Source: an uncultured Verrucomicrobiae bacterium (lineage in GTDB: Bacteria > Verrucomicrobiota > Verrucomicrobiia > Limisphaerales > Palsa-1400). From it: a DNA stretch of 64,000 bases. The DNA is taken from positions 288,001 to 352,000 of the forward strand of contig CAVXRD010000001.1 in NCBI GenBank assembly GCA_963764165.1. The letters run 5' to 3'. Within the stretch, counting starts at the first letter, position 1; the number at the start of each line of letters is the position of its first letter. Under the pieces are notes generated by a model. It did not search any database, was not told where the DNA came from, and was given only the letters and a program-made list of their open reading frames with translations. Of the stretch, positions 5,595-64,000 are shown one piece after another. A program made the translations under genes and the position numbers.

Positions 5595-6311
5595 ATGCGC
5601 GGCGTGAGCCAGCCACCTGAGCCAAGACTTCCGGGGCCACCACATAATCCCGGCGTGCGCGACTTGATCAAGGGCAAACGCCGCTGGGCTGGGCCGCCAA
5701 AGCCGCAAGACGCCAAGCAGGGATTCCGCAGTTGGAACGAGCGCGGTTATCTTCCCCATCGGGACGAGCCAGGCTTGACACAATTCGTCACGTTCCGACT
5801 GGCTGATTCATTTCCTGAAGCGCTTCGTTCGGAGTGGGAGCACCTGCTAAAGATTGAGGACAACGGCAGGCGGCAGGCGGAACTGGAATCGTACCTGGAC
5901 CGAAGCCGTGGCGAATGTCATTTGCGCCAGCCTGAGATTGCCCAACTCGTTGAAAACGCGATGCGGTTCTTCCACGGCGAGCGTTACGAAATGCGCGCTT
6001 GGGCTGTGATGCCGAATCATGTTCACGCATTGTTCAAAGTAGACGCGACGCCGATGGCGGATATCATCCAGAGCTGGAAAAAACACACGGCACAAAAGGC
6101 AAACCGGCTATTGAACCGCCGCGGTGAATTCTGGCAGGCGGATTACTGGGACACATTCATGCGCGACAGAAACCACGAATTGAAAACACGCAACTACATC
6201 GAAGGCAATCCGGCGAAAGCGGGACTTGTTGTCGATCCGAAGGTTTGGCCATGGAGCAGCGCCCGATTTTGGGATACTTGTGGCGTGTTGAAAATCCAGC
6301 GCAACGGCTGA
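5595..6311 (+). mobile_element. REP-associated tyrosine transposase (RAYT, HUH Y1 family), ~238 aa
   Basis: RGYLPH, FVTFRLADS, VMPNHVH (HUH), FWQADYWD, YIEGNP, WPWSSA; flanked by two 141-bp REP doublets; start placed at ATG 5595. Confidence 0.9.
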
Positions 6312-25836: not shown

Positions 25837-26647
25837 GATTGTCTTCACATTCGGTAATACGGGACAGTACCACAATTCTTGCAGACATCGCAGTGCAATT
25901 TGCGAGGTGCTCGAAAGCACGCCAAAACTGTGCAGCCATTGCGCACTTCTGTAAAGCTCAATTTCACCCAAACCTTTGCCGAGTTTTGCGAAACCGTCAA
26001 CATATTGTGGGTTCCGCAGGCGCTCGCACAATCCCTTGGGGGGCATGGCGCAGGGCTTTCCAAACTTGGAGGGTGCAATTTGGGCGCTGAAAAACCGTAG
26101 GTGCAACAGGGTGCAATAGGGTGCAACGCTTCTTTCCGGCGAGATGCGGTTAAGGGCAACTCCGCAGATGGCGTCGGCCTTATTTCATCCGGCTGAAATC
26201 GTTGAAGAACCCGCGCGGGAACAATGCAGAGGGTATGGGGACCGCACGCGCCTCGCGTGCAGTGTTCCGCGCCCTCGCGGAACACATTCGATGTCTGAAT
26301 CGATTGGTTGAACGAATTCGCCAGTGGCGGCTGGCAAGGCGCCAGTCGTCCATACCCAAGGGCGGGTGTGCTCCCCGTGAAATGAACTGCCTCGTTCCGC
26401 CTATGACCGTGCGTCTGCACGGACGCACTCTGCCACGTCTGGAGCTGGATGGAAAACCTACGGGAGGTTTTGCGGCACGATTTTTGTAGAAAAACGCGGA
26501 AAAAATTGAATCTGGAACTCATGAAATCAGGAAAAGTGGCGTCTGGAACGATGCGAGCGGATTTGGGAGCGCGACTGTCCCGGCTGCCCTGGCGGGTGTC
26601 CCCAAGAGTTCTCGATGAAACGCGGGCGTGAAACGGGGAGAATTATT

Positions 26648-26850
26648 GGGCGGCGACGCAGAGATTGTCTCAAAACTACAAAATCCTCAAAGTGTGTCAA
26701 TACTACCAATCTCTCATTTTCGATATGGCGCATTTTTATTTTCGGTGAGGGTGTTTTGGTGGTGCTTTTTAAAGCCGTTTTTGAGTTTTGAGACAGACTC
26801 CGCAGCACCGCCCTACCTCAATTTGGTAGGGCGGACCTGTGTGTCCGCCC
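26648..26850. repeat. REP doublet (GGGCGGCGACGCAGCACCGCCCTACC...GGTAGGGCGGACC) interrupted by a MITE
   Basis: Uninterrupted copy at 62651-62710. Confidence 0.85.
26661..26800. mobile_element. 140-bp MITE, copy 1
   Basis: 17-bp imperfect TIRs GAGATTGTCTCAAAACT / AGTTTTGAGACAGACTC; 4-bp duplication CGCA (26657-26660, 26801-26804); second copy at 38662-38801. Confidence 0.92.
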
Positions 26851-26946: not shown

Positions 26947-27192
26947 ATATAATCTCGAAAAACCCGCTACACCCGCTACATCGTTGATTATCAACCAGAT
27001 AAACCGCTACATTTGCCGCTACAGGGCCGCTACAAACCCGCTACATTTTCTTCCGGGCGAGGCAGTCCAGCCTCAACAAATTGTAGGCCGGGTCGCCCGA
27101 CCGGGCTTCCAGAGGAATCGCAGAGACAGCGGCAGATGGAGTCCAGCGTCGAACCATTTGCGAAAAACAAAAAGTGCAAAAAGTGACGCCTG
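26947..27192. repeat. ~245-bp composite non-coding repeat, copy 1 (six CGCTACA heptamers + GGAATCGCAGAG...CCATTTGCG block)
   Basis: Direct repeat of 27915-28157; partial copies at 30425-30525 (inverted) and 62796-62900. Confidence 0.88.
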
Positions 27193-27914: not shown

Positions 27915-28157
27915 ATATAATCTCAAAAAACCCGCTACACCCGCTACATCGTTGATTATCAACCAGATAAACCGCTACATGGGGCGCTACAAAGCCGCTA
28001 CACACCCGCTACATTCCGGGCGAGGGAGTCCAGCTTCAACAAATTGTCCAAGTCCCCCACCGGCGCCTAGAGGGATCGCAGAGTCATCGGCGGATGGAGT
28101 CACATGTCGAACCATTTGCGAATAACAAAAAGTGCAGAAAGTGAGGACTGACGCCTG
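27915..28157. repeat. Composite non-coding repeat, copy 2
   Basis: Aligns over its length with 26947-27192. Confidence 0.88.
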
Positions 28158-28268
28158 CGCTAGTATGCGCTCATGTTGGTCGGTTCAAAAATATGTGATT
28201 ATGTTGGGCGATGCCCTAATGGATGATCCCTCTAGGACCGACGCCGGCATAGCAGGTATCGCATATGC

Positions 28269-30036: not shown

Positions 30037-30525
30037 CAAGGCTTTCTTGGGAATCTCGACGACCCTCTCCGCTGCGACCGTAACATCAAAATCAGAGGAT
30101 AGACTCAAAACGGCTCTGTCTTTTTGGCCAATACAATAGCGCGCCGGAATCAGCCGAATGCGCTTTTTTCCGGAATCCAATGAATCCGACATCAACATCC
30201 TTCTTGCGAGGCGTACTAAAAATACTGACATGCTATGCTCGCAAATGGATTGTTTCACGATGCAGTCGAATATACAGTGTGGTGGTTTCGAGGAAAGCAT
30301 TAAGGTAAAGGCGGCAAAAATATAAGCGGGGCTGATAAAGCGATTGCGCGGGCATTAGTTTCAGTTTATCGCTCTTAAATAACCTTAAAAATCGCGCAAG
30401 AGTTCGCATGTCCGGGTCCAGTGTCCTAATTTTTTGCGCTTATTTTTTTCGCAAATGGTTCGACTTGACTCCATCTGCCGCTGACTCTGCGATTCCTCTG
30501 GACGCCGGGTCGGGGACCCAGCCTA

Positions 30526-30680
30526 GTGCGCTTGAGAAGGAGCGTGCATAGGAGGGTGGAAGTCCCTCTGTGGCGGTGCTTCCCGCCACGAGTTGAAAGT
30601 AACTGCGTTCTGGCGACAGGGCGTGGAGAGCAACTGGAAACGAAAGGACAGTCCGTAGAACTGCGGGCCGCAAGGCCCGT
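30526..30680 (+). mobile_element. Probable group II intron 5' fragment (domain I only)
   Basis: Starts GTGCG; GAGGG-TGGAAGT-CCCTC hairpin; TAACTGCG...GTGGAGAGCAACTGGAAACGAA...CAGTCCGTA resembles bacterial group II intron domain I; no RT ORF or domain V follows. Confidence 0.6.
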
Positions 30681-30902
30681 CGCAAGTGTCATCGCAAGTG
30701 TCAATCGCAAGTGTCAGTCCTCACTTTTTGCACTTTTTGCTTTCCTGCTTTTAGGCGAAAAAGGGGTCAGACCAACAGGCGAAAAAGGGGTCAAAAAGGG
30801 GTCAGACCAACATAATTACATATTATTCTTCCACCACGAACGACGTCCGCAACAATCCAGGGCACGCGGCCTACTGAAACACCGCCAATTCAGCATTCCC
30901 AA

Positions 30903-31004
30903 GGCAGGGACGCCTCGCGGAGGTGTCCGGTTGCGAGCGATTAATTGCACGGATTGCGCATGAAGAGAGCCTCACTCCGGACGCCTCGGCGAGGCGTCCC
31001 TGCC
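30903..31004. repeat. REP doublet, GG(T/C)AGGGACGCCTCG family
   Basis: GGCAGGGACGCCTCGCGGAGGTGTCC ... GGACGCCTCGGCGAGGCGTCCCTGCC. Confidence 0.85.
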
Positions 31005-31043
31005 TGCCGCTTCGCGGCACAGCGACAGACTTGGAAGTCTGCG

Positions 31044-32945
31044 CTACTGCCTGGCTGGGGCGCGAAAGTCCTCCAGCGTGAGCGCCGGATAGTAAACTCC
31101 CTTGAACTCGCGGCGCCACCAATCCCCTGTCTTCTTGCGCGTCTCACGGTCCGTAAAATGATATTCGTAAACGATTGCCCGGACGTACTTGGGCGGCTTT
31201 TGCGGGAATGGATTTGTGGCAAGAAGATCCAGCACGGGCTTCGATCCCTCCAGCAGCCGTTTCTCAAATGGAAAGAACCAGGTTCTCGAACGCACGGGGT
31301 CAAGGACGGCGAACCACATCTGCCAATCGAGGCGCGGCTGGTAGGGGGCGACAAATTCCGGGCGGCGGCGCACATCGCCGGGATTGTATTTGAATTCGTA
31401 ATCCCGCCATTCCTTGCGGTCGTCGCTGCCTTGCATCACAATTTCCGGCCGGGTTTGCGTCATCACGGCGAAAAGCCCGTAACCATTAAAGCTCCTGAGC
31501 GGATGCACCCACGCGAATACCACGCCGACGGCCTCCGGCCATTGCTGCTGGACGCCGGCGGTGAGTAAAAGCGGAATCGTGGTTGCCGGAATAACACACG
31601 CCGTCAAAATCACTGTAACCGGCCATGGCCACCGGCGGCCTCGCGCCGCGACCGGAGGCGTCACCGCCACTTCCTTTTTCGCGCGGAGCCATTTCAACGC
31701 GTTGTCATCCAGCAGCGGAATGCATAGCACTATCGTGAGCCAGTTAAAGAACGTGTAATTGCCTGTCAACATAATGGCGACCTGGAAGAGCGCAAACACC
31801 ACCGCCGCCGTCAGCCGCAATCGGCGCCCGGAGAAAATGAAAACCGGCACAATCAATTCGATCACAAACATAAGCACGGTGCAAAACGTCTGGAGGCCAT
31901 TCGGCCATTGATGCGCGTACCAGGCAATCCAGGTGGGCAGCGGCTGGGTTTCGTAATGGACGCGCAATGCGCTCAAGTTCCACCACACCGCATCACCGCT
32001 CATGAGTTTGACGCAGCCGGACTCGAACATGAGGCGAAAGATCAGCCAGCGCAGAAGCCAGATGACGAGCGCCGAGGGCCTGGCTTGTCTTGACGGACGA
32101 TCAATCCATTGCAGCGGCGCAAAAAATATGGCCAGAAAACCCGTTTCCAGCAGAAGCGAATCCCACTGAAAGCCCAGGAACGGCCCGGACAGAACGCAGA
32201 ACGAAAGGTAAGTCAGCCACAGAAGAAACGACGTCAATAAAGGCGCAGCCCCGGCGAGAAGCGCGATTGAAAACACAATCCCCAGGCCGCACTGCCAATG
32301 AAGCGCGGAATCGCTGGCGCTCAACCAGCCAAAGGTCGGCATCAAATGAAAACGCTCGAGCCCTATATGATTTCGCACCGCGTCCACACTCGCGGAGTCC
32401 ATTAATTCATGGGCCGGCAAAATTCCATTGCTGCCGATCAACCCGTCGATCTGCCCCCAGAGCGAACCGAAGGCGACCAGATAAATCAGAGCCAGCCCGC
32501 GAAAAAACGCGAAGCGCGTCCAAATGTAGGACGGCGGCGCGATTCCTGGCCCGGAATAAATCCGATCCCAATGAGACAGCGTCGTCCGATGGTAGGCAAC
32601 TTCCTCGTAGAGCAGTTCAGCCAGATCGGCAAACGTATCGGATCTTCGATAAAGGCCGAGCAGCCAGCGGTGCCGATTCCCCTCCGCCAGCGATTGAAAC
32701 ACGGCCTGCGCCCCGCGAGTGACGGAACCATCCGGCAGCACGAGATGAACCGCTTCCTCGAAATCTTCCATCGGGATTTCCGGGAACCGCTGCGGAATGG
32801 ATTCATCCTGGAAGGGAAGAAAATCAACGGCATCGAGAGTAATCGCCTTCCACCGTTCAATCCAACGGCAGCAGAACCGGCAATCGCCGTCAAAAATCAT
32901 CAACGGCTTTGGCGGCGGCGACTGGACACGTATTTCCTGCGGCAC
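31044..32945 (-). CDS. DCC1/DUF393 thiol-disulfide oxidoreductase domain fused to lipase maturation factor (LMF1) family protein
   Basis: FDGDCRFC; FQWDSLLLETGFL, HYETQPLP, YGLFAVMT, PYQPRLDWQMWF. Confidence 0.9.
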   Translation of the reverse strand: MPQEIRVQSPPPKPLMIFDGDCRFCCRWIERWKAITLDAVDFLPFQDESIPQRFPEIPMEDFEEAVHLVLPDGSVTRGAQAVFQSLAEGNRHRWLLGLYRRSDTFADLAELLYEEVAYHRTTLSHWDRIYSGPGIAPPSYIWTRFAFFRGLALIYLVAFGSLWGQIDGLIGSNGILPAHELMDSASVDAVRNHIGLERFHLMPTFGWLSASDSALHWQCGLGIVFSIALLAGAAPLLTSFLLWLTYLSFCVLSGPFLGFQWDSLLLETGFLAIFFAPLQWIDRPSRQARPSALVIWLLRWLIFRLMFESGCVKLMSGDAVWWNLSALRVHYETQPLPTWIAWYAHQWPNGLQTFCTVLMFVIELIVPVFIFSGRRLRLTAAVVFALFQVAIMLTGNYTFFNWLTIVLCIPLLDDNALKWLRAKKEVAVTPPVAARGRRWPWPVTVILTACVIPATTIPLLLTAGVQQQWPEAVGVVFAWVHPLRSFNGYGLFAVMTQTRPEIVMQGSDDRKEWRDYEFKYNPGDVRRRPEFVAPYQPRLDWQMWFAVLDPVRSRTWFFPFEKRLLEGSKPVLDLLATNPFPQKPPKYVRAIVYEYHFTDRETRKKTGDWWRREFKGVYYPALTLEDFRAPARQ

Positions 32946-38473: not shown

Positions 38474-38504
38474 ACATTTTTCCCGGGCGCAGCCCGCTGT
38501 CCAA

Positions 38505-38530
38505 GGTAGGGACGCCTCGCCGAGGCGTCC
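38505..38530 (+). repeat. REP, left member of the doublet whose right member carries the MITE and IS110
   Basis: GGTAGGGACGCCTCGCCGAGGCGTCC. Confidence 0.88.
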
Positions 38531-38661
38531 GGGGACGTGGCGTTCTACACATGCGACCTCACTTTATAAAAGCACGTATTGCGATCTCGTTGGCGCATAT
38601 TCGCAGAACGTTAGAGGAATTGCTGCGTCAACAAAATGCCACAACCTCGGACGCCTCGGCG

Positions 38662-38801
38662 GAGACTGTCTCAAAACTCAAAAACGGCTTTAAAAAGCAC
38701 CACAAAAACACCCTCGCCGAAAATAAAAATGCGCCATATCGCAAATGAGAGAATCATAGTATTGACACACTTTGAGGATTTTGTAGTTTTGAGACAATCT
38801 C
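38662..38801. mobile_element. 140-bp MITE, copy 2 (inverted relative to copy 1)
   Basis: TIRs GAGACTGTCTCAAAACT / AGTTTTGAGACAATCTC; 4-bp duplication GGCG (38658-38661, 38802-38805) in a REP loop. Confidence 0.92.
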
Positions 38802-38834
38802 GGCGAGGCGTCCCTTGTATCTTCTTCTTATTCT

Positions 38835-39050
38835 TCTTGGTAATCCGATGTCGGATCTCCAAGTTGATGCCGCCTCTGCGCCTGCAGGCGCAGAGGCGGC
38901 GGCGGGTTTGAGAACGTGCGTCCCTTGAAGTCGCTGTCTCGGCAGCGAGCTCCGTAAGGTAGCGTGTTCCATTCCCGCCCATTGTTCCAAACTCGAACCG
39001 TTGCCTGAGCGCGTCTAACAACGCGGCTCGAATTTTACAAGTATGAGTCA
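38835..39050 (+). ncRNA. IS110 bridge RNA (predicted; ends approximate)
   Basis: 5' hairpins; target loop with GCGTCCCT (38918-38925) and TAAGGTAG (38955-38962); donor loop with ACCGTTGC (38997-39004) and TACAAG (39036-39041). Confidence 0.85.
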
Positions 39051-39987
39051 GACCAATTCGCCTTCCATTCTCTTCGTCGGCCTCGACGTTGCCAAGTCCT
39101 CTTTGCAGCTTCACCTGGCCGCTCAATCCCATGCCCTCTCCAATGACGCCAAAGGCCATCAAAAATTGATCGGCCTCTTAAAGTCTCATCCAAGCGCCCA
39201 AGTGGTCTGCGAAGCCACCGGCGGCTACGAGCAGCCTGTGCTGGCCGCTCTCCATGAAGCCGCCATCCCTCTGAGCCTGGTCGAAGCCGGACGGGTCCGT
39301 CACTTCGCCAAAGCCAAAGGCAAGCGCGCCAAGTCCGATCCCATCGATGCTGCCGTGCTCTCCGCTTACGGAGCCGCCCTCCAGCCCGCTCCCACGCCCC
39401 AGGCCTCTCCCACCCAGCAGCAATTGACTCAACTGACAAGGCGCCGCCGCCAAGTGGTTGAACAGCTGGTCGTCGAACGCAATCACGCAGAACATTATGC
39501 CGACAGCTTTTCCCAAAAACAGTCCCGCCAGATCATCGCTCTGCTGGAAAAACAAATCGCCCAGTGCGAGCGGGAAATTGCCTCGCTCATGGACAAGGAC
39601 GCCGACTTGAAGAAAAAAGCCCAGCGCCTGCAGACCATCCCCGGCGTCGGCTCCGTCACCGCCGTTTGCGTCCTGGCTGAAATGCCCGAACTGGGCACTC
39701 TCGAGGATGGCTCCTGCGCCGCCTTGGCTGGCCTGGCCCCTTACAACAGCGATAGCGGCCAACAGTCCGACCAGCGCCACATCGGCGGCGGCCGGGCCGG
39801 CATCCGCCGAGCCCTCTACATGGCCGCCCTAAGCGCCGTTCGCTGCGACCGCATTCTCAAAGAGTTCTATTTGCGATTGCGGAATAACGGCAAAAAACCA
39901 AAGGTCGCCCTCACCGCCGCCATGCGAAAGCTTATCCTCCTTATGAACCGATTGCTGAAAAATCCCAATTTCCAGCTTGCCAGTTAA
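39043..39987 (+). CDS. IS110-family DEDD recombinase/transposase, 314 aa
   Basis: GLDVAK, CEATGGYE, KSDPIDA (DEDD), IPGVG, GLAP..SDSG serine motif, ALYMAAL, AAMRKL. Confidence 0.96.
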   Translation: MSQTNSPSILFVGLDVAKSSLQLHLAAQSHALSNDAKGHQKLIGLLKSHPSAQVVCEATGGYEQPVLAALHEAAIPLSLVEAGRVRHFAKAKGKRAKSDPIDAAVLSAYGAALQPAPTPQASPTQQQLTQLTRRRRQVVEQLVVERNHAEHYADSFSQKQSRQIIALLEKQIAQCEREIASLMDKDADLKKKAQRLQTIPGVGSVTAVCVLAEMPELGTLEDGSCAALAGLAPYNSDSGQQSDQRHIGGGRAGIRRALYMAALSAVRCDRILKEFYLRLRNNGKKPKVALTAAMRKLILLMNRLLKNPNFQLAS

Positions 39988-40127
39988 CACCGTTGCTACC
40001 TTAGAGTGGCGCCTTTGGCGCGAGATTATTCGTAATTGTATCGCAACGGATATTTTGGCGTGAGCCATTTCAACGCCAAGTTGCAAGCCAAGTGACAAAC
40101 GGCGCTTAATCGTATAAGCTTTTTCGT

Positions 40128-54757: not shown

Positions 54758-54956
54758 CCTCTCATTAACACCCCGCTTCAGCGGGGTGCGGGCGCCGTCG
54801 GCCCGACAAAAACCGTTTCAACGGTTTTGGCATCGCGTCACTTCGCCCCGTAACGTTCCACCCGCAATTTCGGCGCGGCAAGACCGGAAACCGTTAAAAC
54901 GGTTTCCTCTTCGCTCGCATGGGGCCTCCCCGCTGAAGCGGGGTGTTAATGAGAGG
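54758..54956. repeat. Nested REP-like inverted repeat
   Basis: 29-bp perfect arms CCTCTCATTAACACCCCGCTTCAGCGGGG (54758-54786, 54928-54956) enclosing two AAACCGTT.AACGGTTT hairpins. Confidence 0.85.
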
Positions 54957-57026: not shown

Positions 57027-57044
57027 CCGCGCATCGCGAAGCGA

Positions 57045-57075
57045 GGTAGGGACGCCTCGGCGAGGCGTACCTGCC
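57045..57075. repeat. REP hairpin between convergent genes (possible terminator)
   Basis: GGTAGGGACGCCTCG-G-CGAGGCGTACCTGCC. Confidence 0.75.
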
Positions 57076-61015: not shown

Positions 61016-61172
61016 TTCTTTATTAGATTAACCAGACGTTGCCACATTTTCCCGGGGAGGCGACGGCCCCGTCCTGAGCGGGCAGACCGCAAATCAGAGT
61101 GTGAGAAGATAGCGGCTCGCCGCAAGGTGTCAATCGCGCAAATTGCCTTTTGGATCGTCGCAAAATCAATCT

Positions 61173-61271
61173 GGTAGGGACGCCTCGCCGAGGCGGCGGG
61201 GGTGAAGCTTTATATATGCGGCTACTGCGGCATTTATCCCGCGCAACCGGACGCCTCGGCGAGGCGCTACC
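61173..61271. repeat. Degenerate REP doublet, GGTAGGGACGCCTCG family
   Basis: GGTAGGGACGCCTCGCCGAGGCG ... GGACGCCTCGGCGAGGCG-CTACC. Confidence 0.8.
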
Positions 61272-62449: not shown

Positions 62450-62650
62450 GAGTAGACGGCTGCCAATGCCGACGGAGCGGGAAGGTGGCGGAAGGCACCC
62501 ACCTTTGTCAATTGTTTTTCCAGCCTTTTCGGGAAAATCCGACGGCACGCTGCTGTGACACAGACCAGCCGCCGCAAGTCGAAACAAACGGCGCGCCGAT
62601 GCATTACAATGCACGTATGATTAGAGGTGGGTGAGGCCTTCAAGAATATT

Positions 62651-62710
62651 GGGGCGGCGACGCAGCACCGCCCTACCTCAATTTGGTAGGGCGGACCTGC
62701 GTGCCCGCCC
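62651..62710. repeat. Empty (MITE-free) REP doublet
   Basis: GGGCGGCGACGCAGCACCGCCCTACCTCAATTTGGTAGGGCGGACC, matching 26648-26850 minus the MITE and one CGCA. Confidence 0.88.
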
Positions 62711-62795
62711 AAATATTGTCACCCTGTTCCAATCACACCCTAACAACGCGCCGCGGCAGATTCATCGTCGCATCGCTCCTTCTAATCAATACAAT

Positions 62796-62900: not shown

Positions 62901-63317
62901 CCGGCGTGTCTTCGCGACCTCGTGTCCTTGTTGTTAAAGGTCTTTTTTCAGGTTGCCGAGGGCGTAGCGCGCATGGCATTGCCGGGCCAGCCGGAAACGG
63001 CAAGAGGATTGAACAACAAGCACGCAAAGGCCACGAAGAGACTTCCGTCAACGCGCCCGGCCAGTGGGAAGAGAACTCTCGCGCAGAGAAGATGAGTGCG
63101 CAGAGGAAGACAAAGACAAATCCGCACTCCACTGAAAACGGCGAGGAACTTTTTTTGGTTGCGGCTGGCCGCGCTGCGCCCTCGCACCCTTGCGTTAAAA
63201 ACCCCCTTCCCCGGCTTCAAAGAGGGACATTAGCGCCAGGACGCCAGGGCACAGCGCGGCAAAGCCGCAACCAAAAATAAGAGGAAAGCGCCGTCCGGTC
63301 TGGGTAAGATTGGATGT

Positions 63318-64000
63318 ATGCAAAACAAACCGCTTACCCATGACGGCGCTTCCAACTCTTTTGTACACAAACATGCTTCCTCAATTCTAGGAGTTCTTTC
63401 GGGCTTTGATCGCCTGCGATTGCGCGGGACGCTGCGCCAGTTGTACGGCCCCCAGGTGATGGAGGCCTACTTGAACGCCTGCCACATTCTGATCAAGGAT
63501 TTCAGCCAGTTGGTCGAACGGACCACCAAAGCGGTCAAAGACAAAGCCAGGGCCCTGGCACAAACAGCCGGGCGGCCTTTTCTTTTCGTCCCCTCCAGCC
63601 AAACCAGCAAGGAGGAGGTGGCGCGCAAGATTGCCGCCCGCGATAAAATCACCGAGGGACTGATCGCCATTCTCAATTGCACGGAACCCTGCATGTCCTT
63701 TCAAGTCGTCGGAAACCCCCAAACCAAACACATTGAGGTGAAGGTTCAGCAGCGCAAGTGCAGCCATCTTTATTTCTATTTCGAGCATTCCAAGTTTGGC
63801 TTCATGCACCTGCGCCTGCAAACCTGGTTTCCCTTCCAGATTAATATCTGCCTCAATGGCCGGCATTGGCTGGGAAAGCAGTTGGATCAGGCAGGCATTG
63901 CCTATCAAAAGAAGGAGAACACCTTTTTGCGGGTGGCCGATATGGGGCGCGCTCAAGGCCTGCTGGACCAGCAACTGCAAACTGACTGGCCCAAGGAGCT
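63318..64000 (+). CDS. Uncharacterised protein, probably encoded by a mobile element; runs off the window (not in ORF track)
   Basis: 227 stop-free codons: GVLSGFDRLRLRGTL, EPC, HLYFYF..SKFGFMHLRLQTWFPF...LNGRHWL..QL...GI.Y...NTF; preceded by a hairpin end motif. Confidence 0.8.
   Translation, partial: MQNKPLTHDGASNSFVHKHASSILGVLSGFDRLRLRGTLRQLYGPQVMEAYLNACHILIKDFSQLVERTTKAVKDKARALAQTAGRPFLFVPSSQTSKEEVARKIAARDKITEGLIAILNCTEPCMSFQVVGNPQTKHIEVKVQQRKCSHLYFYFEHSKFGFMHLRLQTWFPFQINICLNGRHWLGKQLDQAGIAYQKKENTFLRVADMGRAQGLLDQQLQTDWPKE

Follow-up and report, generated by a model that had tools for sequence, protein, structure and literature searches.

The DNA described here is a 64,000-nucleotide stretch (the window) of a genome of 7.0 Mb (G000; 5 contigs, 97% complete), corresponding to G000:C1:288001-352000. 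Most named relatives of the mobile elements in this genome are found in Verrucomicrobia. An inverted pair of REP palindromes comes after a DUF1501 gene in the window. The left member (38505..38530, plus strand) is an intact REP of the family that we call REP-A, and carries on the minus strand a free target for the IS110 element described below. The right member, a REP-A on the minus strand, has been hit twice. Its foot-distal arm and loop lie at 38649..38661 and are followed by a 140-bp MITE (38662..38801, plus strand), which has the terminal inverted repeats of an IS1182 element of 1683 bp. Behind the MITE lie the right copy of a 4-bp target duplication, the foot-proximal arm of the REP and its CT core (38802..38815, minus strand; CT at 38814-38815), and then an IS621-like IS110 element of 1182 bp placed between two CT dinucleotides (38816..39997, plus strand). 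The rest of the GTAG foot follows at 39998..40001 (minus strand). The duplicated tetranucleotide is GGCG (38658-38661 and 38802-38805), and 12 bp separate the MITE from the CT core. When both elements are removed in silico from 38649-40001, a consensus REP-A is regained; the first-pass annotation of this DNA was right to describe one REP with a MITE in its loop and an IS110 in its foot, the REP being of the GTAG type. Public sequencing runs contributed four DNA datasets with small shares, and no RNA dataset was listed; contigs yielded short, near-identical pieces of the IS110 gene, with neither flanks nor an empty allele nor a circle junction among them, which is uninformative in both directions.

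REP sequences were counted in the whole genome after in silico removal of the elements, with family labels of our own. There are 444 REP-A sites (at most 3 mismatches), 24 of REP-B1, 37 of REP-B2 and 481 in total of six other repeat families; REP-A and the REP-B types together represent about 2.2% of the roughly estimated non-coding DNA. REP-A is a high-copy palindrome with a GTAG foot, that is, a GTAG-type REP, and has two cognate RAYT genes flanked by its inverted copies (G000:C2:2170020 and C4:582574; NF047646 over cut-off). These genes were reached only via the sequences of relatives, and a PF01797 profile search gave 10 loci, none of them flanked by REP-A. Among 15 RAYT-like loci examined, flanked genes were also found for families C, D, E and I, and none for families B, F, G and H. 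The RAYT-like gene present in the window (5841..6254, plus strand) is flanked by REP family C and is no partner of the REP that was hit twice. Family D (119 copies) has a GTAG foot like that of REP-A, with the hairpin displaced further along. The GTAG foot, the palindrome, the inverted pairs and the RAYT gene between inverted copies are all known from GTAG-type REPs, which have been reported in Verrucomicrobia (PMC3733652); the words 'intron', 'IS1182' and 'IS110' are absent from the main text of that paper. The REP at 61249 does lack TCC next to its CT core, as previously noted. It was considered as an excision scar, and this was rejected: the genome contains 16 exact copies of the sequence, which is therefore a REP variant. 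Matches of the miRNA type to Rfam in the window proved to be REP hairpins. Additionally, a repeat found at 30681-30745, 27164-27192 and 28126-28159 forms the terminal inverted repeats on either side of Y1 transposase genes at G000:C4:237800-242500, and is similar to the TIR-associated tyrosine transposases of PMC3733652.

The recombinase gene of the IS110 element (39043..39987, plus strand) encodes 314 aa, matches PF01548 and PF02371, and scores 208.7 bits against NF033542 (cut-off 140). The protein combines a DEDD RuvC-like domain with a C-terminal serine domain, and its best solved relative is IS621 (E 6.8e-36). The genome carries two identical copies of the element, the one in the window and another at G000:C2:1263027-1264208. 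Both occupy the same REP position, at the CT of the complement of the REP-A foot, with the CT core at both junctions and no target duplication, as in IS621-like elements. A bridge RNA is predicted at 38860..39042 (plus strand; left-end fold z -5.65), in which sequence matching places the left target guide at 38917-38925, the right target guide at 38956-38962, the left donor guide at 38997-39005 and the right donor guide at 39035-39041. The target guides match at 8/9 positions on the left and 6/6 on the right. Guides for both halves of target and donor are present at the left end, and on this sequence evidence the RNA would be IS621-like. The joined ends of the element would bring together TTGCCA and TATCTT, 17 nt apart (9/12 to the promoter consensus).

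Relatives of this IS110 were collected from 22 loci, 16 of them readable (6 were dropped as unreadable), with 8 distinct target loops. The donor is constant in all 16, and the target loops fit their own targets better than those of the others (mean 12.9/15 vs 10.3/15), a difference overstated by the fact that the relatives are kin rather than independent. Several relatives with the same donor sequence point to other repeats. The arrangement is that of IS621, and RNA guidance is predicted. IS621 and ISPpu10 (PMC11208160; 10.64898/2026.03.19.712850) have in common with the present element the DEDD and serine domains, the CT core, a left-end bridge RNA with four guides and a target hairpin of REP origin 5' of the core. 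Unlike in those two systems, the guides fit a verrucomicrobial REP, and the target hairpin has been lengthened by a MITE. Unoccupied bridge targets suggested earlier are indeed present at 38503-38516 (13/14; the one in the intact REP-A), 57043-57056 (12/14) and 61171-61184 (11/14); two more lie at 30901-30914 (12/14) and 30993-31006 (11/14).

The MITE belongs to a short, non-coding family of 22 genome copies (138-140 bp), one of which, at G000:C3:341176, is 100% identical to that in the window. Its ends and target rule are those of an autonomous IS1182 of 1683 bp, present in 27 near-identical copies, while the interior has no similarity to IS1182 at E 1e-8. IS1182 encodes a 486-aa transposase (NF033551, 346.7 bits; cut-off 270) and has the terminal inverted repeats and the short duplication in a palindromic target expected of its family. 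The window contains a second, 95% identical copy of the MITE (26661..26800, minus strand) in the loop of a REP-B hairpin (26645-26820), flanked by a duplicated CGCA; an empty paralog of this REP-B cluster lies at 62643..62714. The earlier statement that a second MITE sits in a different REP family is thus correct. Enrichment in REPs holds genome-wide and is far beyond chance, as all 49 IS1182 and MITE copies lie in REP loops (44 in REP-A, 4 in REP-B types and 1 with one flank of each), within the 2.2% of estimated non-coding DNA given above.

In 48 of these 49 copies, and in either orientation of the element, the 4-bp duplication begins 8 nt past a G(T/C)AG foot. The count takes in the window copy with its foot restored, a contig-end copy with a single flank and a copy with an extra base; the lone exception is a MITE placed 6 nt from the foot in a shortened REP. 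The foot matters, since 39 of 274 REP-A sites with GTAG are occupied, compared to 1 of 112 with GCAG and 0 of 58 with any other foot. The hairpin matters too, because family D, which has the same foot and a displaced hairpin, holds none of the elements in its 119 copies. Relatives of IS1182 were examined at 17 loci of other genomes and at L011; 10 of them are 63-81% identical, and 9 could be scored, by eye (two share one flank; L010/L013 duplicate a junction counted before, and L038 shows one end only). A GTAG, GCAG or GTGG foot stands at 8 nt in 8 of the 9, with differing stems, although the relatives are kin and the fraction overstates the case. One relative, L041, lies in a hairpin loop without a GTAG-like foot. 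More distant loci (L042-L048 and L050) have no foot at 8 nt where their ends are readable, and no relatives were found in viral contigs. A search of 400 other genomes of the phylum did not find the MITE. One relative of it was seen in L049; at L049:491-660, a related MITE and a related IS1182 lie nearly back to back in one REP. No solved structure related to the transposase was found by sequence search.

It could be argued that IS1182 and the intron described below read hairpin shape only, as do IS1272 and IIC introns, with REPs being merely the commonest hairpins. IS1272 targets share structure rather than sequence (PMC5678879), and the 8-nt position is also the loop in REP-A and REP-B. Moreover, the exceptions, C1:688701 and L041, fit such a view: one MITE at 6 nt and one relative without a foot suggest that structure alone can sometimes suffice. 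However, the six other abundant repeat families hold no IS1182 or MITE in their 481 copies, the nearly empty GCAG-footed REP-A sites have a hairpin identical to that of the GTAG-footed ones, and at C2:403354 the cut tracks the canonical foot and not the loop sequence. We therefore regard recognition by shape only as unlikely, and a position measured from the foot as the better description of IS1182 targeting. Some members of the IS1182 family are known to target palindromes (PMC5678879). IS1272 is similar to the present clade in its transposase family and palindromic targets, and a loop duplication is among the outcomes drawn in that study; yet IS1272 replaces the stem-loop without duplication and without target sequence preference, whereas the present clade generates a 4-bp duplication at a set spacing from a GTAG foot, with GTAG favored over GCAG. 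An 8-nt rule measured from the foot and common to a clade of IS1182 is newly added here; a literature search for IS1182 in REPs (mostly open-access papers) returned no description.

Among the 48 copies with two flanks, the 4-bp duplication is exact in 37; of the others, 9 have a one-base mismatch, one carries an additional base and one is chimeric. The mismatched base adjoins the element in 9 of 9 cases, and 8 of these lie in the foot-proximal copy of the duplication. It is an even bet, judging from these junction sequences, that one or more donor bases stay on the non-transferred strand after cleavage by the transposase, and would sometimes be kept by repair. Errors of assembly, polishing or repair would be the other source of such mismatches, and we rate them only a little lower. 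The genome is a single assembly, and reads of other copies would first differ at exactly this base. Furthermore, simple carry-over of donor bases does not predict the 8 to 1 bias, and three of the nine mismatches share the same T and may represent one inherited event. Errors would not, on the other hand, readily explain why every single mismatch touches the element, or why the resulting loop variants occur in 0 of 252 intact REP-A copies. Each replaced base is also found at the same end of some other copy of the element, and four of them (three T, one A) are rare among the copies, so that majority polishing would not give them. No description of donor bases in target duplications was found in the literature, as covered by the same kind of search.

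Several other observations concern this group of elements. The chimeric copy, at G000:C2:2992594, is an IS1182 flanked by REP-A on the left and by REP-B on the right, produced by rearrangement between copies or by misassembly. At G000:C1:1276491-1278163, a diverged (80%) remnant of a related IS1182 end lies 8 nt from a GCAG foot, with a loop variant that is also seen in some of the mismatched junctions. A second MITE family of about 320-330 bp (e.g., C1:781171; 17 matches) has longer duplications and is often found within another repeat.

The third type of element is a group II intron. A low-copy GTAG-type hairpin of family G (30499..30525, minus strand) is cut inside its foot and forms the 5' exon of an ORF-less intron fragment at 30526..30679 (plus strand). 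The fragment breaks off beside another repeat, is too short to contain EBS1 or domain V, and is 97% identical to the first 154-156 nt or so of a complete 745-nt intron at G000:C4:642506-643250. The Y1-flanking repeat at 30681-30745 abuts and truncates it. The complete intron has a GUGYG start, domains V and VI, an AY end and a score of 53.3 bits against RF00029 (gathering 40), as befits group II; Rfam searches of the window and of 30300-31100 did not detect the fragment. A group II intron-like fragment in the foot of a third REP had been proposed at 30526, and this stands as regards the 5' junction, with an intact homolog of the target hairpin and its complete GTAG foot at 27083..27106 (plus strand) and with the pattern of the intron family; the 3' junction is missing in the window. 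These two copies are the only ones in the genome, and both follow a hairpin, of family H on contig C4 (47 sites) and of family G in the window (about a dozen loose matches), with EBS1 matching each site in 3 of 4 bases. There is no intact reverse transcriptase (RT) in the genome (PF00078, 0 matches; TIGR04416, 2 fragments), so the copies may be old or may have been moved by a helper since lost. Relatives measure about 1870 nt; their RT/maturase of 447 aa has no endonuclease domain. Another group II intron has left a 3' remnant at G000:C1:1371401-1371921, with a similar domain V/VI, RT fragments and a 3' exon beginning with C.

To describe the family, 104 loci were examined (the best 80 of 182 metagenome loci and 24 from an order-wide search). 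A 5' start could be identified in 89 of them, and 78 of the exons are distinct. As many as 64 of the 78 exons end just past a hairpin, against 11.7 in shuffled sequences and 10 of 59 upstream, although the relatives are kin and these statistics overstate the contrast; 14 have no adjacent hairpin. The exon ends with CTA or CTC in 54 of 78. Removal of the 49 introns with both junctions rebuilds GTAG in 21 cases, GGAG in 10, GTGG in 3 and other tetranucleotides in 15. In 23 of the 28 cases that could be read, rare variants included, all four bases of the EBS1 loop pair with the end of the exon (shuffle mean 7.4, maximum 16), and the three targets tested in their host genomes are all multi-copy (16, 180 and 22 matches). 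IIC introns insert past terminators or other inverted repeats (PMC1702495), which would suit a reading in which the intron recognizes hairpins of any kind; EBS1 is, however, mostly UAGN or GAGN, and GTAG or GGAG is rebuilt in 31 of 49 sites.

The class of this intron is mixed. Insertion just past a stem-loop with an EBS1 of 3-4 nt is characteristic of class C. In domain V the triad is AGC and the loop has 5 nt, and the domain is one position shorter than the Rfam consensus. The four best solved relatives of the RT, one of them labelled GsI-IIC, are presumably all IIC maturases. The best plasmid matches are 50% identical and carry no class labels. Class C introns are similar to the present ones in inserting a few bases past a DNA hairpin, in the 4-nt EBS1 and in the absence of an endonuclease domain (PMC4424553, PMC1702495), but their targets are terminators or attC and not REP feet, and their domain V has a CGC triad and is 2 bp shorter in its distal stem (PMC1702495), features that are not seen here. 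A 5-nt loop in domain V has been described for IIE/IIF introns (PMC3753933). As for the EBS1 and EBS2 pairings of IIE/IIF (about 5-6 bp), four positions of EBS1 were scored, and the hairpin occupies the place of IBS2. The intron therefore has IIC-like targeting without a IIC domain V and, because of the AGC triad and the 5-nt loop, is not filed as class C. In a 2015 review, three types of intron targets are given, namely homing sites, terminators and attC, with no REP among them (PMC4424553); our search for introns in REP feet, again of mostly open-access papers, also returned no description.

Other elements of the genome served as controls. One IS4 (NF033592) has 7 copies (e.g., C4:270-1572), 6 of which lie in the loop region of REP family E, and a second IS4 (NF033590) occupies family I in 2 of 2 copies (G000:C1:1233797 and C2:3445717). 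In the nine REP families tested, no copy was found of IS5 (0/12) or IS630 (0/9), and one of three IS66 copies lies in one of them. Thus, elements differ in what they target, and for the most part each keeps to its own families, the two IS4s being found in families E and I, and IS5 and IS630 outside the nine. One copy of the first IS4 lies just upstream of the RAYT gene of family E at C4:1837, and an empty inverted pair of family I is present in the window at 54758-54956. A separate 1.7-kb element, located at 63252-64000 of the window and in seven other places (8 near-identical copies), encodes a 533-aa protein without an NCBIfam match; its sites have a purine-rich motif ending GGCA-like, with no clear duplication at the chosen boundaries.

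The first-pass annotation had gone further and proposed that REPs maintained by RAYTs form a shared safe-harbour network used by RNA-guided, DDE-type and retro-elements. Part of this stands: the doubly hit family has two cognate RAYT genes. One network for all is not supported, as targets are mostly split by family, and for the families of the second MITE and of the intron no flanked RAYT was found among the 15 loci. Only REP-A is used by more than one type of element (44 IS1182/MITE copies plus the chimeric site, and 2 IS110 copies); the intron is found in two other families and the IS4s in two more.

A stronger form of this idea, in which REPs are one landing network maintained by RAYTs and the doubly hit REP is a case of cooperation or a special site, appears to us very improbable. 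In its favor are the RAYT genes of REP-A, the insertion of the two IS4s into further RAYT-flanked families, and the TTGACA that the MITE keeps near its IS110-facing end, considering that read-through is needed for IS621 excision (PMC13626964). Against it stand the families used mostly by a single element, the failure to find a flanked RAYT for B, G and H among the 15 loci, a promoter scan that found no site in the MITE, and the frequency of double hits. A perfect 12-nt IS110 target is present at 195 REP-A sites, of which 31 already hold an IS1182 or MITE; with two IS110 copies, one would fall into the same site as such an element with a probability of 0.29, and of the 444 REP-A sites only 1 has been hit twice. 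This event is unremarkable and needs no special explanation, since chance would give as much with a common target. The TTGACA (38763-38768) is kept in 3 of 3 aligned MITEs, including that of L049, and faces the IS110 here; it was not scored by the promoter scan, and a MITE-driven promoter for IS110 was dropped as unsupported.

The order of the two insertions at 38649-40001 can be suggested from sequence: the MITE probably came before the IS110, because insertions of the IS1182 type need an intact foot (all occupied REP-A sites have G(T/C)AG). The IS110 target was left untouched by the MITE, whose insertion even lengthened the target hairpin; this lengthening fits the hairpin aid reported for ISPpu10 (10.64898/2026.03.19.712850).

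The reading that we prefer, with a probability of roughly 83%, is that three unrelated mobile elements occupy fixed positions in REP hairpins, each having found REPs independently through a GTAG-like foot beside a GC-rich hairpin. The earlier proposal that RNA-guided (here predicted), DDE-type and retro-elements converge on REPs is in this respect well founded, with 2 of 2 IS110 copies, 49 of 49 IS1182/MITE copies and introns mostly in GTAG or GGAG feet. From the positions, copy numbers, duplications, guide matches and covariation observed, we infer the enzymatic steps, mobilization in trans, the order of events and the harmlessness of the insertions. The IS1182 transposase would bind the foot and the hairpin and cut the loop with a 4-bp stagger that begins 8 nt past the foot; the MITE, with ends in common, is likely moved in trans by the same transposase. 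IS110 would recombine at the CT of the foot's complement under the guidance of a bridge RNA fitting REP-A, and at the doubly hit REP it would have reached a target that the earlier MITE had left untouched. By reverse splicing, the intron would enter between bases 3 and 4 of the foot's complement, with the aid of its 4-nt EBS1 and the hairpin. The role of RAYT may be indirect, by keeping the repeat abundant; nothing ties it to the insertions beyond this upkeep.

That insertion sequences converge on REPs has been known before and is not new as a headline. Five IS families (IS3, IS110, IS4, IS256 and IS5) have already been shown to target REPs (Tobes and Pareja 2006, PMC1525189), and IS1397 and IS621 both use the REPs of E. 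coli (PMC1525189). As in the present genome, all copies of an element occupy one REP position, unrelated families converge, and two elements can share the REPs of one genome (ISPpu9 and ISPpu10). Unlike here, IS1182 and MITEs are not among the families of that study, group II introns are only 2/9 associated in P. putida, and no Verrucomicrobia are among the genomes given in the available text. What is added here is the 8-nt foot rule, the element-adjacent mismatches in target duplications and an intron with mixed features.

In a broader sense, the chances are about equal for and against REP feet being a target code common to classes of elements. According to this proposal, a widespread intron lineage outside class C homes to GTAG and GGAG feet, a fourth type of target, and a clade of IS1182 finds its site by counting 8 nt from the foot and takes a donor base along to the new junction. 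If true, the donor base would give a first hint of the way in which IS1182 transposases cleave their ends, and the junction mismatches offer a cheap test of it. An IS1182 target of one position that tolerates various stems is a simple system for the reading of foot and hairpin by a DDE transposase, and the intron lineage joins hairpin-dependent targeting with a non-IIC domain V. All three types of elements are present in one genome, on targets that are mapped and countable.
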